Shown: piece by piece, positions 4,025 to 47,716 of the stretch
Position numbering within the stretch: position 1 is the stretch's first letter
Layout of the letters: each line of letters opens with the position of its first letter
DNA from: Octopus vulgaris
Taxonomy: Eukaryota
Assembly: GCA_951406725.2 (NCBI GenBank)
Contig: OX597839.1
Span: 37,138,001 to 37,202,000 of the forward strand
Direction: 5' to 3'
DNA length: 64,000 bases
Notes under the pieces: model-generated
Database searches by the model: none
Told to the model about the DNA's origin: nothing
What the model saw: the letters and a program-made list of their open reading frames with translations, nothing else
Program-made: the position numbers and the translations under genes

Positions 4025-4081
4025 TGTATGTGTGTGTGTGTGTGTGTGTGTATGAATGCATGCATATATGTATGTAAGCAC

Positions 4082-4320
4082 ATAAATGCAAGACAACGTG
4101 GGAAAATAATAGTACTCAAAAATCGGAGGTAGAGTAATATACTTTTTTTTTTTTATTAAAGCTGAAAAAAACATGACAAAAAGAAACTGTTACTCAGAGT
4201 TTCACATTTCCATTCGTCAGACAGTTGTGATCAAGTCTTGATCACAAGTATCCAACAAACAGCAATGTGAAACTCTGAGTAACAGTTTTTTTTGTCATGT
4301 TTTTGCAGCTTTACTAAAAA
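4082..4320. mobile_element. Penelope-like pseudo-LTR-derived fold-back element (family P4)
   Basis: Inverted arms (CTGTTACTCAGAGTTTCACATT / AATGTGAAACTCTGAGTAACAG) around palindromic TTGTGATCAAGTCTTGATCACAA; relatives at 46153-46300 and 18198-18240; Penelope origin inferred from hammerhead plus inverted layout. Confidence 0.65.
4187..4224 (-). ncRNA. Minimal type I hammerhead ribozyme motif
   Basis: Minus strand CTGT-CTGACGA-ATG-GAAA-TGT-GAAA-CTC-T-GAG-TA-ACAG: stem I CTGT/ACAG, intact core, wobble stem II, palindromic stem III, GUA site. Confidence 0.75.
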
Positions 4321-4336
4321 GTGTGTGTGTGTGTAT

Positions 4337-6318: not shown

Positions 6319-6884
6319 AACCTACATATATATTGACCACGGTGGAATTTGAACTCAGAACGTAGTAGCGGATGAAATGTTGCCAAGCATTTCGCCTGGT
6401 GTGTGAAATATTCTGCCAGTTCACCGCCTTAAGAAGAATATTAATAATAAAACCGTTTGTCTCTATCTCTCCACCCCAGCCCCCCCCCCTCACCAACCCC
6501 TGTTGAAACAGAAGCCAATCAATTATAGCCATAGTTTCCACTCACCAATACAGTTATTGATCAGTGTCATATTTATTGATGAAACAATGGCTTTGGAATA
6601 TAATTTCAACTTAACACTGCATATTGTCACTTAACAAAATAAATTTAACTCCACCTTCGCCGCTGCCACAATCACCACCACCACCACCACCATCTCCAAC
6701 ACCACCACCTGACCATGACATTTACCACTTCCACAATGACACTTTCTTTCCAACCTCACTCCACCCCAATTCCATGCCCACCTCCACTTTTGACATCGCC
6801 AACACCATGACAACGCCCCTACCACAACACTCGCCACAACCACCACCGTGACACTCACCACATCATCCCCAACTAACAACCACC

Positions 6885-7195
6885 ACTACCGCAATACCAC
6901 CGCGATGACAACACCTCCACCATAACACCACCACCCTAACCATGACACTCTCCACCACCTCCACAACAACCCCCCCCACTTCACTCACCACCACAATACC
7001 ACCGCGACGACAACACCTCCACCACAACACCACCACCCTAACCATGACACTCCCCACCACCTCCACAACACCCCCCCCACTTCACTCACCACCACAATAC
7101 CACCGCGACGACAACACCTCCACCACAACACCACCACCCTAACCATGACACTCCCCACCACCTCCACAACAAACCCCCACTTCACCCTCCACCAC
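6885..7195. repeat. C/A-rich tandem repeat, ~100 bp x3
   Basis: CAATACCACCGCGA...CCCTAACCATGACACTC...CACTTCAC recurs three times. Confidence 0.85.
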
Positions 7196-7523
7196 CAACG
7201 GCTTTACAATATTTACTATATTTTAAATTAAATTGTAACATCTTTTTTATTGTTGCCTAAGTTTATTTTTATAATTTCATTTTGTTTTTATTTATCGTGT
7301 TTACATGTTTTATTTATATATTTATGTACCTTTTTTGTCTTGTGTTTAATTTTTGTGGTTTTGTGTATTTATCTAAGTTTATATCGAACTTCTTTATTTG
7401 TGTATTTTGTTTTAAAGTTAGTGTTTGGAGTTAATTTATTTCTATGTTGTTTGAGTGTTTTTTTTTAGTATATGTGTGTTTGTCCGTGTGTGTATATATA
7501 TATATATATTGACTTATTGAAGT

Positions 7524-7566
7524 CCACCTGAAGATTGTCGATCAAGACAAGAAACGATTGTAGTGG
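7524..7566 (+). ncRNA. Minimal type I hammerhead ribozyme, canonical core (family P5)
   Basis: CCAC-CTGAAGA-TTGTC-GATCAA-GACAA-GAAA-CGATTG-TA-GTGG: stem I CCAC/GTGG, stem II TTGTC/GACAA, near-palindromic stem III ACGATTGT, GUA site; inside a ~150 bp insert between (TA)n runs. Confidence 0.85.
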
Positions 7567-7789
7567 CGTTTTTTTTTACTATTTATTAAAATTTTATGTA
7601 TTGATTAAGTCTTTCCTTGTTTGTTTTGCAAAATAGTGGTTTTGTCTCTAATAATATTTTATATATATATATATATATATATACATAAACACACACACAA
7701 ATATATATATATTTTATCGACCCCAAAAGATGTGTATGCATATATACATATGTGTATGTATATGCATATGTGTATAAGTGTGTGTGTGT

Positions 7790-8090
7790 GTGTGTGTAAG
7801 TGTTGTAAGAGACTTCTTGAGTGTTGTGTGTGTATGTGAATGTATATAGTTGCATATGTTATGTGTGTATATATGTATATGTGTGTATGTATATGTGTGT
7901 GTATGTATATGTGTGTGTATGTGTGTGTGTGTATATGTATGTGTGTGTATGTGTGTGTGTATATGTATATGTGTGTGTATATGTATATGTGTGTGTATGT
8001 GTGTGTGTGTAAGTGTTGTAAGAGTGTTCCTGAGTGTTGTGTGTGTATGTGAATGTATATAGTTGCATATATTATGTGTATATATATGTA
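7790..8090. repeat. Local direct duplication within TG/TA microsatellite
   Basis: GTAAGTGTTGTAAGAG...TGAGTGTTGTGTGTGTATGTGAATGTATATAGTTGCATAT at ~7796 and ~8009. Confidence 0.8.
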
Positions 8091-14544: not shown

Positions 14545-15210
14545 AAATAAAATAATGAAATTATTGTATACAGTGCTCAGGTGCACCACAACTTGTCAGA
14601 AAGTGCGTATAAAGTACATGCAGTAATGTACAAATGTCTGAAAAGCGAACAATGTATGAGTCAGATAGATGCTTGCGTGTGTATGGAGGGGAGGAAATCA
14701 GGTGTAGTGTTGGCGAATCTCAGGAAGCATGGAAGTTTTGAAGGATGCAGTGCTCCGACAACTAACAACTGATGCCGGCAATTTGTTCCATGCTTCAGCG
14801 TGTGTATGGAGGGGAAGAGAAGATCAGGTGTAGTGTTGGCGAATCTCAGGAAGCATGGAAGTTTTGAAGGATTCAGTGCTCCGACAACTAACAACTGATG
14901 CCAGCAGTTTGTTCCATGCTTCAGCGTGTGTATGGAGGGGAGAAAATCAGGTGTAGTGTTGGCGAATCTTAGAAAGCATGGAAGTTTTGAAGGATGCAGT
15001 GCTCCGACAACTAACAACTGATGCCGGCAGTTTGTTCCATGCTTCAGCAACTCTCAGCGTGAAAAAATGTTTCCTAAAGTCATGGGAGCTGTGCTGTTTT
15101 CTGACTTTGTAAATATGTCCACGGGCGTTAGACGGGTGGAGTTCAAAAAGGTGCTCAGAGTTATTGCATGTAAGATGGTTGATAATTTTATGGGTGTCTG
15201 CCATATGAGT
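14545..15210 (-). mobile_element. 5'-truncated CR1-clade LINE 3' end
   Basis: ORF 14947-15204 reads ARGHIYKVRKQHSSHDFRKHFFTLRVAEAWNKLPASVVSCRSTASFK, the typical CR1 ORF2 C-terminus (RGH..K...RK.FF..RV...WN.LP..VV...S...FK), followed by a 3'UTR and AT-rich tail. Confidence 0.85.
14675..15046. repeat. Tandem triplication (123/126/123 bp) of the CR1 stop-codon region
   Basis: Units start GCGTGTGTATGGAGGGG at 14675, 14798, 14924. Confidence 0.9.
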
Positions 15211-18160: not shown

Positions 18161-18199
<39 letters not shown>

Positions 18200-18659
18200 T
18201 TTATTAATAAAACTGCAAAGACATCACAAAAACTGTTAGCCTCTTGCAGAAGAAAAATGCTGATGTGACATCTGCAACTTTGTGTGCATCTAATGATGCA
18301 GACTAGTTCTTCTTTAGTGGCGATTTCATACAATATTCAGGGAACAGGATCAGCCCAATGTAAGGTATTTCTTCACTTAAAGAAATATCAAATGTTTTCT
18401 AACATTTCTGTTATATGCCACCTGCCATGGTTGGCCATAGCCAAAAAAAAGGCAAAACACTCAATGACTAGTTTTATGATGGAATTAAAGCAGGTTTCAA
18501 CATGGGTGGCAAGCTCCCTCAACACTTACAGCAAGAGGCACTCATTGTTGCCATATGAGTGCAGCTCATGTTTAAGAGAATGATCAAGTGATAGCATTGC
18601 TTGGAATCAAGTTGCAGTCATTATGTGTGTCCTGTGTGTGTGTATGCATACATATCTTT

Positions 18660-22433: not shown

Positions 22434-23512
22434 GGCGCAGGAGTGGCTGTGTGGTAAGTAGCTTGTTTACCAACCACATGGTTCCGGGTTCAGTCCCACT
22501 GCGTGGCACCTTGAGCAAGTGTCTTCTACTATAGCCTCGGGCCGACCAAAGCCCTGTGAGTGGATTTGGTAGACGGAAACTGAAAGAAGCCCGTCGTATA
22601 TCATCATCATCATCATCATCATCATCGTTTAACGTCCGCTTTCCATGCTAGCATGGGTTGGACGGTTCAACTGGGGTCTGGCAAGCCCGAAGGCTGCACC
22701 AGGCCAGTCAGATCTGGCAGTGTTTCTACAGCTGGATGCCCTTCCTAACGCCAACCACTCCGAGAGTGTAGTGGGTGATTTTATGTGCCACCGACACAGG
22801 TGCCAGACGAGGCTGGCAGACGGCCACGCTCGGATGGTGTTTTTTATGTGCCACCGACACAGGTGCCAGACGAGGCTGGCTGACGGCCACGCTCGGATGG
22901 TGTTTTTATGTGCCACCGACACAGGTGCCAGACGAGGCTGGTGGACGGCCACGCTCGGATGGTGTTTGTTACATGCCCTCAGCACGGAGGCCAGTCATTG
23001 CGGTACTGGCTATGGTCACGTTCGGATGGTTTTCTTATGTGCCACCGGCACTGGTACCACAAGGATACAAATTCCATTGATGTTCATCTATTTTGATTTG
23101 GTTCGATTTGATTTGATTTGATTCGATTCTCACTTGCCTCAACAGGTCTTCACAAGTGTCACAAGAAGGAAGGTATGCACAGGTGGACTGACTACGTCCC
23201 AGGTAGGGGCCACGGATTATGGCTTCACTAGTCTTGCCGGGTCTTCTCACGCACAGCATACTTCCATAGGTCTCGGTCTCTAGAGTGTGTGTGTGTCTGT
23301 GTTTGTCCCCCTAGCATTGCTTGACAACCGAAGCTGGTGTGTTTATGTCCCCGTTACTTAGCGGTTCGGCAAAAGAGACCGATAGAATAAGTTCTGGGCT
23401 TACAAAGAATAAGCCCCGGGGTCGATTTGCTCGACTAGAGGCGGTGCTCCAGCATGGCCGCAGTCAAATGACTGAAACAAGTAAAAGAGTAAAAGAGTAA
23501 AAAGAGTAAAGA
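22434..23512 (+). mobile_element. SINE family A interrupted by RTE 3' end
   Basis: Head 22434-22600, tail half 23285-23512. Confidence 0.85.
22601..23284 (-). mobile_element. 5'-truncated RTE-like LINE 3' end (source of family E tail)
   Basis: Minus strand starts ...RDRDLWKYAVREKTRQD* (RTE-type DR..W C-terminus), then 3'UTR with ~61 bp tandem repeats and (GAT)n tail. Confidence 0.75.
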
Positions 23513-26559: not shown

Positions 26560-26736
26560 ATCTATACAATATGTTACATTACTCGGTAGTCAAGATAAAA
26601 CTCTGAGTTTCAGCGGCATCTGAAACTCAGAGTTTTATCTTGACTACCGAGTAATGTAACATATTGTATAGATAAATTTCCTCTATTTACATAATATTGA
26701 GGTCTCTTTCTTTCTTTTGTTATCTTACCGTTTTAT

Positions 26737-26740
<4 letters not shown>
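26560..26740. mobile_element. Family P3-related fold-back element
   Basis: Perfect ~50 bp arms TATACAATATGTTACATTACTCGGTAGTCAAGATAAAACTCTGAGTTTCAG / CTGAAACTCAGAGTTTTATC...; right part is the reverse complement of 33569-33645. Confidence 0.75.
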
Positions 26741-26770
<30 letters not shown>

Positions 26771-26773
<3 letters not shown>

Positions 26774-27682
26774 TAAACATACTGACATCTGCTCTGCTCA
26801 TAAACAGACACATACATATTATCATCATTATTTTAATGTCCACTTTTTTCGTGGTTGCGTGGGTCAGACAGAATTCATTGAGGTAGATTTTTCTGAGGCT
26901 GGATGTCCTTCCTGTTGCCAACCTTCACCTGTTTCTGTTTCCAAGCAAGACTATTTCCCCTTGGCCAAATATGTTTTCCCCAAAAATCTGGAAACAAAGA
27001 TCACCACTTGTATGACATTGATACTCATGTACAACCATCAGTGATGTCTAGACAATAATGCTCATATATGCATATACTACTATATATATATATATACATG
27101 TATATATACATGTACTCATATATATATATACATACATGTACACATATATATATAAAGATATATACATACATATATCTAAAATTTACAAAAAAAACCCAAA
27201 AGACGAAGACACGTGTATAAACAAGCAGGTGTATTAGTTTGACGCTCTGGAAAGTGAGAAAGTCCTTTATGTTTTGAGCCTACGCTCTTCAACAGAAAGG
27301 AACACAAGGAAACAGAGAGAATTAAAAAAACTTGTGGATTTAGCAGTCAATACACACACACACACACACACACATACACATATACACAATACACATTAGA
27401 TGGGCCTCTCAGTTTCTGCCTTCCAGATTTACTCAGAAGGTTTTGGTCAACCTGTGACTATTGTAGAAAACACCTGCACAAGGTGCTGCCCAGTGAGAGT
27501 GAACCTGAAATCACATGGTTGAGAAGCCAGCTTCTCAACCACTCATACACCTGCACCAATTTCTTCTCTTGTTATTGGTAAAATATTCTATATAATATGT
27601 TTTATTATGTTTTGGTTTTTCATAACATCATCATCATCCTCATCATCACCATTTAACGTCCAGTTTCCATTCTGGCATGAGT
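26771..27682 (+). repeat. Direct duplication copy 1 (~0.9 kb)
   Basis: Colinear with 28289-29278, including E, P2 and SINE A fragments. Confidence 0.92.
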
Positions 27683-28291: not shown

Positions 28292-28307
28292 TAAACATAC
28301 TGACATC

Positions 28308-28350
<43 letters not shown>

Positions 28351-28644
28351 GCTCATCTGCTCTGCTATGAACAGACACATACATATTATCATCATTATTT
28401 TAATGTCCAATTTTTCATGGTGCATGGGTCAGACAGAATTCATTGAGGTAGATTTTCTGAGGCTGGATGTCCTTCCTGTTGCCAACCTTCACCTGTTTCT
28501 GTTTCCAAGTTCCAAGCAAGATTATTTCCCCTTGGCCAAACATGTTTTCCCCAAGAATCTGGAAACAAACCACTTGTATGACATTGATACTCATGTACAA
28601 CCATCAGTGATGTCTAGACAAGAATGCTCACATATGCATATACT

Positions 28645-28683
<39 letters not shown>

Positions 28684-28946
28684 GTACATATACATGCACA
28701 CACACACATATATATATATATATACATACATGTACACATATATATATATAAAGATATATACATACATATATCTAAAATTTACAAAAAAAACCCAAAAGAC
28801 GAAGACATGTGTATAAACAAGCAGGTGTATTAGTTTGACGCTCTGGAAAGTGAGAAAGTCCTTTATGTTTTGAGCCTACGCTCTTCAACAGAAAGGAACA
28901 CAAGGAAACAGAGAGAATTAAAAAAAACTTGTGGATTTAGCAGTCA

Positions 28947-28989
<43 letters not shown>

Positions 28990-29278
28990 TTAGATGGGCC
29001 TCTCAGTTTCTGCCTTCCAGATTTACTCAGAAGGTTTTGGTCAACCTGTGACTATTGTAGAAAACATCTGCACAAGGTGCTGCCCAGTGAGAGTGAACCT
29101 GAAATCACATGGTTGAGAAGCCAGCTTCTCAACCACTCACCCACACCTGCACCAATTTCTTCTCTTGTTATTGGTAAAATATTCTATATAATATGTTTTA
29201 TTATGTTTTGGTTTTTCATAACATCATCATCATCCTCATCATCACCATTTAACGTCCAGTTTCCATTCTAGCATGAGT
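28289..29278 (+). repeat. Direct duplication copy 2 (~1.0 kb)
   Basis: Colinear with 26771-27682; differs mostly by microsatellite lengths and small indels. Confidence 0.92.
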
Positions 29279-46140: not shown

Positions 46141-46469
46141 ATTTTGTACCACATAAATGCGAAACAAGGTGGAAAAAATAGTACTGGAATACCAGAGGTA
46201 GAGTAATATGCTTTATTGAAAATAAAAAAATATCACAAATCTGTTACTAATGAGAACAAGAAACTCTGAGTAACAGTTTTTGTGATATTTTTGCTGCTTT
46301 GGAGCCTGGTGCAGCCTTCTGGCTCACCAGTCCTCAGTCAAGCCATCCAACCCATACCAGCAGGGAAAGCAGACGTTAAACGAGGACGATGATGATGACG
46401 ATATATATATATATATATATTTATATATGGATGTGTGTGTGTTTATGCATAGATATATTAAGGCATATA

Positions 46470-47716
46470 TTAGGTTTGTAAAAATTCCTGTTGCATTTTT
46501 CACACAGTCACGTTGATGGCACTTTTTTCTATACTGGTTGTAAAATAAGCTTTAACTTTTCCATTCTAACATTTTCTCTCTTTCTTTGCAAATTACTTTA
46601 TACCATGGTGGTTAAAACTGTACAGATTTTACCCTTTTAAAATGAGTTTAGATCAGAACCATATCAGACACTGCATGCTACATAAATTCGAAAGGAGTTT
46701 TTCAGGAATGGAAGTGGCAAGAAATATTCGTTCTGACTGTGGAAATGAAACTTTAAGTGTCTGAATATGCCAACAATGGTTTGACCAGTTTTGGGAAATT
46801 TATTTCTTGCAGAATGCCCTCAATCTGGATGACTAAGTTCTGTCAATACTGACCTTCTGAAAACTCAAAGCAAACTGCACAAGAATTAGCAAAACAGTTA
46901 AATTCAAGTCACACTTTAATCATAAAACAGCTTCATGATTTAAGAAATGTGTCCTGATTTGGTCAGTAGTTCTCTCATCATCTCACTGCTTTGCAGGTTA
47001 ATCAAATAATCACCCTCAGCTCATCATTGAAGACTGACTATCAAACCATTCCTGGGTAGAATCCTCACAGTGATGTAAAAGTGGATTCTCTATGAATATA
47101 TCCAATGAAAATGACAATGTCTAACACCCAGTGAAAAAGGGGAATCCATTCCCAAACCAAACTACACTCAGAAAAACATTTATACTCTGCATTTGGTGGG
47201 ATATGAATGGTGTTATCTATCATGAAGTCTCAAAACAAAAACAAAAAAACAGTTAATATGGAGAAGTATTGGCATTAATTAGCATTAAGTATTGTACAAA
47301 AAATTTGCAGAAAATCACTCATCATTGATCAATTATAAAAAGGTGTTTTTCTAATATGATAAATGCAAGACAGCTTATTGCCCAAGTCACTTGGGAAAAG
47401 ATTATAGTTCTAAATATGAAAGTTTTGCCTCATCCTCATTAATCTCTTGACTTTGCTCCATCTAACTATCATCTTTTCATTTCATTGCAACATTATTTTA
47501 TTATTTTGAGAGAAAACAATTTATAAGTGGTTTAAAATGATATTGAGTGTTTCTTTGCTTCAAAATGTGAAGAATTTTATGCCCGAAGGATCAACAATTT
47601 GCCAAAGAGATGGGATTATGCCATCAAAAAGTGAAGAGGAATGATATATTGATTAAGTGTTTGTTTCTTTCGCATCTTGAAACGCAACAAGTCTTTCTTT
47701 CCAACCAAACAGTAAT
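46470..47716 (+). mobile_element. Near full-length decayed mariner element; transposase pseudogene 46642-47656
   Basis: HIRHCML..F....EVARNI (HTH), GDEKW-like, LCIWWDMNGVIYHE, DNAR, VLPHPH*SLDFAPSNYHLF (cf. HPPYSPDLAPSDYHLF), INNLPKRW; degenerate TIRs; ~1.25 kb. Confidence 0.88.

Follow-up and report, generated by a model that had tools for sequence, protein, structure and literature searches.

Does a 43-nucleotide segment of the octopus genome, at 7524-7566 on the forward strand, specify a self-cleaving RNA, and what kind of element carried it there? The original prediction described an intact canonical minimal hammerhead ribozyme within a 150-bp (TA)n-flanked insert, linked it to the pseudo-LTRs of Penelope-like elements, considered it potentially active, perhaps as a dimer, and proposed a search with the Rfam hammerhead models. 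We followed up these claims in the window, meaning the whole 64-kb stretch of DNA that was analyzed, which is AT-rich, dense in microsatellites (184 tandem-repeat rows), devoid of long complex reading frames and animal-like in character.

A hammerhead motif in a (TA)n-flanked insert

The locus is composed of the following features, with positions counted from the first letter of the window.

7493-7509, no strand: left (TA)n tract, likely one half of the microsatellite that was targeted
7510-7659, + strand: 150-bp insert, a member of a high-copy dispersed repeat; likely a 3' pseudo-LTR piece of a 5'-truncated Penelope-like element, as judged from its setting
7510-7523, + strand: 14 nt 5' of the hammerhead, forming the 5' end of the insert copy
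7524-7527, + strand: 5' strand of stem I, four Watson-Crick pairs with 7563-7566 (P about 0.95 in the isolated 43-mer)
7528-7534, + strand: core box C3-A9, CUGAAGA, with no alternative letter at 3% or more in four sequencing runs
7535-7550, + strand: stem-loop II, five Watson-Crick pairs (7535-7539/7546-7550) and a 6-nt loop (7540-7545), with U10.1-A11.1 as the core-side pair
7551-7554, + strand: G12 A13 A14 A15.1, read from the sequence and the descriptor
7554-7561, + strand: self-complementary 8-mer from 15.1 to 16.1, the predicted intermolecular helix III of a double hammerhead, with two G-U pairs in the insert copy
7561-7562, + strand: U16.1 and H17 (A), giving the triplet GUA; predicted cleavage 3' of 7562
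7563-7566, + strand: 3' strand of stem I, pairing with 7524-7527
7567-7659, + strand: 93-nt AU-rich 3' tail between stem I and the right tract
7660-7683, no strand: right (TA)12 tract, flanking the 3' end of the insert

The type I hammerhead motif at 7524-7566(+) is real, and all of its core bases are present. Relative to the type I core definition of Perreault et al. (PMC3088659), the segment contains C3 U4 G5 A6 N7 G8 A9, G12 A13 A14 A15.1 and U16.1 H17, together with the three core-adjacent pairs 1.1-2.1, 10.1-11.1 and 15.1-16.1 (C7527-G7563, U7535-A7550 and A7554-U7561) and an open-ended stem I. Using a strict descriptor (Watson-Crick stems I, II and III of at least 4, 5 and 1 pairs), we found 7524-7566 to be the sole match in the 64-kb window, and none of 300 locally shuffled windows contained one; the loose version gave two loci in the window and at least one match in 11 of 300 shuffled windows. 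Six further CUGA-box matches in the window passed neither the strict nor the loose structure descriptor. The reading of a complete core with stems I and II of 4 and 5 bp, respectively, thus held, as did that of the insert, whose length is exactly 150 bp (7510-7659), bounded by (TA)n at 7493-7509 and 7660-7683.

The wording "intact canonical", in contrast, was too strong. Stem II closes with U10.1-A11.1 and there is no unpaired base after A9, so that the minimal-hammerhead consensus of G10.1-C11.1 plus an extra base is not matched. A U-A pair at 10.1-11.1 probably lowers the cleavage rate. This position holds the most conserved pair after 15.1-16.1, although a natural U-U occurs there (Perreault et al., PMC3088659), and the G10.1-C11.1 pair with its extra base stands above 80% in the minimal-hammerhead consensus, with published exceptions (PMC4209133). 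None of the literature passages available measured the effect of U10.1-A11.1. The triplet GUA is natural and intermediate, and it occurs in active natural hammerheads (PMC1636495).

The proposed Rfam search returned no model at gathering score across the whole window and, among the 30 matches at E<=10 in 7300-7800, no hammerhead, a result that also counts against a canonical motif; Rfam hammerhead models may, however, not cover minimal type I motifs. The predicted fold of the 43-mer is ordinary in stability (z = -0.70 vs shuffles). Pattern scans outside the window yielded eight loci: none and then three in metagenome contigs, one in viral sequence and four in prokaryotic genome contigs. We rejected these as relatives, since blastn aligned none of them to the insert outside the pattern itself, nor to any other part of the window; they are read as chance occurrences, and two of them (L001 and L003) lie visibly in coding DNA.

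Several other repeats were noted in the window. A 101-bp C/A-rich minisatellite (6884-7195; 3.1 copies, 94% identity) lies 300 bp upstream of the insert, and two further minisatellites with complex units are located at 14675-15048 (123 bp, 3.0 copies) and 22774-22971 (62-63 bp, 3.1 copies). Translated stretches at 26676-27581 and 28304-29271, separated by about 1.6 kb, are nearly identical, which points to a local duplication or to a repeat present twice.

Depth and variation of the repeat family

Part of the stretch was present in 20 of the 24 listed sequencing runs, and we aligned the contigs of four of the 24 (X1, X6, X9 and X16) to 7200-7760 at 80% likeness. Seven bins over 7523-7655 were 497-11,400x deeper than the flank 7371-7446 in X1 and 14,860-55,393x deeper in X6, the flank being represented by one contig in each case and the summed contig depths not amounting to a copy number. 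In X9, which comes from a third organism, the insert was covered and the same flank was uncovered. This difference in depth between insert and flank, in runs from three organisms, indicates that the insert belongs to a high-copy dispersed repeat family. Within the 64-kb window there is no second copy of the insert, and the locus holds no tandem. The T-rich segment 7257-7351 upstream of the insert also rose in depth, up to about 8x the flank in X1 and 26x in X6, which possibly reflects low-complexity matches or another repeat of lower copy number.

Repeat masking in the depth analysis took out both ends of the insert and with them its borders and any empty site; because of the mask, the depth drop at 7504-7522 is likewise not readable as a shared 5' end. 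The contigs are about 60 nt long. Under these conditions, with ends masked and no bridging contig, neither an empty site nor an insertion polymorphism was seen, and no joint of any kind, including a 3'-to-5' back-joint, was listed in the four runs. Transcription of the locus itself was not apparent, as X16, a run guessed to be RNA, covers the insert but not the unique flank; runs on record as RNA, all outside the four aligned, contain a share of 0.06 of the stretch.

Within the 43-mer, only two changes at 3% or more were listed in the four runs, and both are compatible with the fold. G7556A accounted for 83, 15, 98 and 37% of the depth in X1, X6, X9 and X16, respectively, and A7562U, which preserves the UH rule, for 8% of the X9 depth in one contig. 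With the common family letter A at 7556, the helix from 15.1 to 16.1 becomes a perfect 8-nt palindrome that is fully Watson-Crick. Just beyond stem I, G at 7569 made up 88-100% of the depth, whereas the insert copy has U. Six substitution rows fell in 7567-7587 and none in 7588-7648; because the latter segment shows as few listed changes as the core, the contig data give the ribozyme no extra conservation over its tail. For stems I and II, the contigs of the four runs list one-sided changes only and no compensatory change on both sides.

Other copies are represented by two loose-end rows, one from X1 (4 contigs) and one from X6 (3 contigs, agreement 0.72). Both retain GACA and GAAA as well as the palindrome and the 3' side of stem I, while their loop II letters differ and position 11.1 is U or G. 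On these thin data, the free loop II would match the expectation under selection on the fold. The row from X1 carries U at 11.1, like 18 of the 26 Hydra-clade rows in File S2 of PMC8557442.

In other loose ends, (CT)n letters precede a copy that begins at 7536, and (TA)n letters precede copies that begin at 7580 and 7583. A head-to-head junction is seen in one X16 contig, where 7570 adjoins a 29-letter piece in inverted orientation; by hand comparison, after reverse complementation, this piece matches 7510-7519 exactly and then continues for 16 letters further 5'. This single contig suggests that the family extends at least 16 nt 5' of the insert copy. Contig depth climbs toward the 3' part of the insert, which fits 5' truncation but may also be caused by sister families sharing the tail. 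In several X1 contigs, recorded over 7603-7614, the tail passes at 7605-7614 into a short sequence that is self-complementary, richer in GC and absent from the window, and other loose-end rows have differing sequence before 7603; sister families may have the last 50 nt of the tail in common.

Predicted folding of single and paired copies

In the isolated 43-mer, stem I was predicted with P = 0.95, stem II with 0.73 and helix III with 0.04, in agreement with the earlier view that stem III is a near-palindrome that folds poorly alone. In the monomer, the sequence allows a pair C7555-G7560 next to A7554-U7561. Inside the 150-nt insert, the predicted probability of stem I falls to about 0.001-0.002, the family letters included. 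We considered whether the 3' tail acts as an evolved lock on the ribozyme and rejected this idea: the long alternative hairpin has a z of only -0.47, and shuffled tails suppress stem I equally in 200 of 300 cases and stem II in 69 of 300. Since two thirds of the shuffled tails match the loss of stem I, this loss within the insert appears generic.

Co-folding of two copies gave a different picture. The minimum-energy structure was a double hammerhead (-21.4 vs -6.5 kcal/mol for one copy), in which an 8-bp helix III is predicted to form between the strands and the stem I strands are exchanged. The intermolecular pair A15.1-U16.1 reached P = 0.90, a value attained by 5 of 180 orders of the six inner letters, with 19 of 180 exceeding 0.5. 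The total energy of the dimer is unremarkable, as 98 of the 180 letter orders fold as low. For the palindrome duplex, we obtained -5.8 kcal/mol with the letters of the insert copy and -6.4 kcal/mol with A7556. The palindromic 15.2-16.2 region that permits dimers, a feature of the minimal hammerheads of metazoan Penelope-like elements, is present, and the predicted structure bears out the earlier suggestion of dimer action.

The same predictions speak against the claim that the copy in place is potentially active: it stands alone in 64 kb, and its helix III and stem I rarely form in the monomer and the insert, respectively. With no partner in the 64 kb and a weaker letter at 7556, the copy at 7524-7566 is likely inert, and by our model in vivo cleavage by it would be improbable. 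The published activity of related motifs is weak. A schistosome minimal hammerhead showed no cleavage as a monomer and low cleavage as a dimer (PMC4209133), and one of nine dimer elements from Xenopus cleaved (bioRxiv 10.64898/2026.07.22.740005). An axolotl motif with two pairs and a tetraloop reached 22% monomer cleavage in an hour (PMC7229834), and by analogy a slight monomer activity of the insert hammerhead is conceivable.

Likely origin, relatives and competing explanations

We consider it likely, on the combined sequence and folding evidence, that the insert is the 3' end of a 5'-truncated Penelope-like retroelement whose hammerhead would cut only as a dimer, the lone copy being probably inert. 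Given a Penelope-like origin, membership in the Hydra clade is probable. Both assignments are likely ones drawn from architecture and context, and to that extent the earlier link to Penelope-like pseudo-LTRs is supported. Full-length Penelope-like elements with an endonuclease encode a telomerase-like reverse transcriptase and a GIY-YIG endonuclease in one open reading frame, around which a partial tandem forms the pseudo-LTRs. Strong 5' truncation, often an inverted 5' piece and a one-ended tail characterize Penelope-like insertions (Craig et al. 2021, PMC8557442); depth and loose ends revealed the same hallmarks here, namely dispersed, 5'-truncated copies and, in one contig, an inverted 5' piece. 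A Pfam scan that covered 300 of the 358 complex frames of the window, the longest ones (at least 45 aa, with 352 low-complexity frames excluded), revealed no reverse transcriptase or GIY-YIG piece, and the contigs of the four runs connect the family to no open reading frame. In a stub left by an early stop, such a piece is expected to be missing. The sole Pfam match above the curated cut-off was a Mos1 mariner transposase helix-turn-helix fragment at 46570-46761(+) (PF17906, E = 7.7e-06).

Families of the Hydra clade carry 3' hammerheads, and almost all insert into (TA)n (PMC8557442); the insert likewise lies in (TA)n, with other copies behind TA letters. The clade itself is defined by reverse transcriptase phylogeny and by protein motifs: RWK, DKT, a CxCX5C linker and the lack of CCHH (PMC8557442). 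This preference is not exclusive, as Neptune and Naiad elements also favor microsatellites, Naiads without canonical hammerheads (PMC8557442). The insert shares with the Hydra clade, as described in that source, the type I form, a short stem I, a self-complementary helix III of the form ac...gt, a position near the 3' end and the (TA)n target. By hand count of the Hydra rows in its File S2, helix III reads ac...gt in 26 of 26. Two further features that the insert has in common with many Hydra rows are rare in the Cervera alignment: H17 is A in 12 of 26 Hydra rows vs 6 of 56 there, two of these being Hydra elements, and stem II reads U-UG...CA in 11 of 26 vs 1 of 56, again a Hydra element (hand counts). 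The 93-nt tail is inside the range of Hydra tails behind stem I (26-351 nt, median 73.5, n = 24 families in File S2, after exclusion of an antisense duplicate row and one family with a 5'-end motif).

The insert also departs from these rows. Position 11.1 is A here and in none of the 26 rows, all of which have a pyrimidine (PMC8557442), and the distance from 15.1 to 16.1 is a loopless 8 nt vs 9-10 nt in 26 of 26. Both oddities have precedent in a Penelope-like element, since PLE-X1_cBra of Chara braunii (PMC8557442 File S2) combines an A just 5' of GAA with a loopless 8-nt palindromic helix III; this element differs in being algal and endonuclease-less, with a GC-rich 6-bp stem II and C at H17, and sequence kinship is not implied. 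Identity with Hydra-1_Obim was rejected because its printed 3' end differs. Identity with the consensus sequences of PMC8557442 was likewise rejected, as four short motifs of the insert or family had no match in the supplement, where line breaks can hide matches.

Compared with the minimal hammerheads of Cervera and De la Pena 2014 (PMC4209133), the motif agrees in its full core, in a helix I of 4 bp with loop 1 undefined, in the palindrome over 15.2-16.2 and in the AU-rich 3' side, and it shares the occurrence mostly as solo copies of truncated elements and the predicted dimer action. It differs in having U10.1-A11.1 in place of the G10.1-C11.1 and the unpaired base after A9 of their consensus, and in spanning 8 nt from 15.1 to 16.1, where theirs mostly span 4 nt.

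A second minimal type I hammerhead, of a family unrelated to the 7510-7659 insert, was observed at 4185-4226(-), within 4075-4325. It has a 6-bp stem I, CUGACGA, a weak 3-bp stem II with a GNRA-type loop, a 9-nt near-palindromic helix III and UA, and dimer pairing was predicted with P = 0.92. The motif sits in one arm of an inverted repeat (4150-4320, 86%), the CUGA box being lost from the other arm, and a further tail of about 75 nt is found on one arm only. Its stem I and helix III letters closely resemble the Hydra-2_aMil and Hydra-2_aJap rows (PMC8557442 File S2). An inverted pair of the same family, likewise tailed on one side but inverted at another point, occurs at 46145-46300, and a short 3' piece adjoins (TA)n at 18198-18238. 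We counted the inverted structure with a tail on one arm in favor of the Penelope-like reading of the insert.

Under the Penelope-like reading, the GIY-YIG endonuclease of the parent element would have nicked the (TA)n tract, and its reverse transcriptase would have begun to copy the RNA at the 3' tail but terminated 14 nt beyond stem I, with the insert as the resulting stub. In a partial-tandem transcript of the parent, the two pseudo-LTR hammerheads would pair via the 8-nt palindrome, swap stem I strands and cleave 3' of A17; the reaction would probably be slow or aided by the element's protein, and it would release the element RNA from the longer transcript. For an anole Penelope-like element in vitro, the endonuclease nicks AT-rich DNA and reverse transcription begins near the RNA 3' tail; its hammerhead shows protein-dependent cleavage and is dispensable for insertion in vitro (PMC11167929).

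The strongest competitor, still an unlikely one, is that the insert is a short non-autonomous element, either SINE-like or a non-LTR retrozyme monomer, which arose from a Penelope pseudo-LTR and is mobilized in trans by a Penelope-like element, and whose hammerhead would process tandem transcripts to unit-length or circular RNA. The very high depth for so short a sequence and the family's lack of a linked open reading frame would suit such an element. Animal non-LTR retrozymes resemble the insert as short, AU-rich, non-coding repeats (150-450 bp) with type I hammerheads (PMC7229834); they are argued to derive from pseudo-LTRs, act with dimer assistance in amphibians and commonly include solo monomers (bioRxiv 10.64898/2026.07.22.740005). 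Retrozymes are, however, defined by tandem arrays and circular RNA, whereas the window holds one solo copy and no tandem, and the four runs show no 3'-to-5' back-joint, a weak argument given the masked ends and short contigs. Copies of the family start at several positions, one of them with a 5' inversion, there is no long target-site duplication, and the minimal-type architecture is kept apart from retrozyme hammerheads in PMC7229834.

We regard two active roles in host RNA as more doubtful still. In the first, which seems highly unlikely, the insert would belong to an undescribed, extremely abundant family whose loopless 8-bp palindromic helix III and exchangeable stem I would allow solo copies to pair in trans across different host transcripts and cleave one another, so that thousands of stubs embedded in microsatellites would be no fossils but form a concentration-dependent RNA-cleavage network. 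In the second, which is very improbable, 7524-7566 would be active as a monomeric ribozyme, cleaving a host transcript 3' of A7562, and would be retained for that effect. The complete Perreault core with its three adjacent pairs (PMC3088659) and a triplet known from natural active hammerheads (PMC1636495) would allow this, a monomer helix III of two pairs and a 4-nt loop has the shape of the axolotl motif that cleaved (PMC7229834), and the putative RNA run X16 covers the insert. That run nevertheless leaves the unique flank uncovered, the Pfam scan recognized no host gene in the window, the monomer and insert folds are as poor as described above, and the weaker G at 7556 and U at 7569 are as in a drifting copy. 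Least probable of all is a chance arrangement in an unrelated repeat, such as a MITE or SINE end, with no ribozyme ancestry: the missing Rfam match, a fold energy not above shuffles, the lack of listed covariation and the eight chance strings in bacterial or viral coding DNA would agree with it, but the strict descriptor matched none of the 300 shuffled windows, none of the eight loci is like the insert beyond the pattern, the palindrome lay outside the descriptor, sister copies retain stem and core with other loop letters, and the fit to the Hydra-clade table (PMC8557442) is close.

As the 3' end of a Penelope-like element, the insert belongs to a kind already well described and adds one family to the minimal hammerheads that mark Penelope-like ends in animals. 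Such hammerheads number in the thousands per animal genome (PMC4209133), and their role in Penelope-like elements is still open (PMC8557442). No paper on this family was among the matches listed for literature on octopus or cephalopod hammerheads, Penelope elements and the Hydra clade; Repbase, Dfam or the library of PMC13282606 may already name it. That 2026 octopus repeat annotation reports 31 recently active Penelope-like families and, in its available part, does not use the word ribozyme. The modest value of the family is as a test piece, as its predicted 8-bp dimer helix is strong and occurs naturally with one letter changed, and position 11.1 varies naturally among A, U and G. Should solo copies prove to cleave in trans or within their flanks, host RNA would be shaped by a very abundant repeat, which would be surprising.
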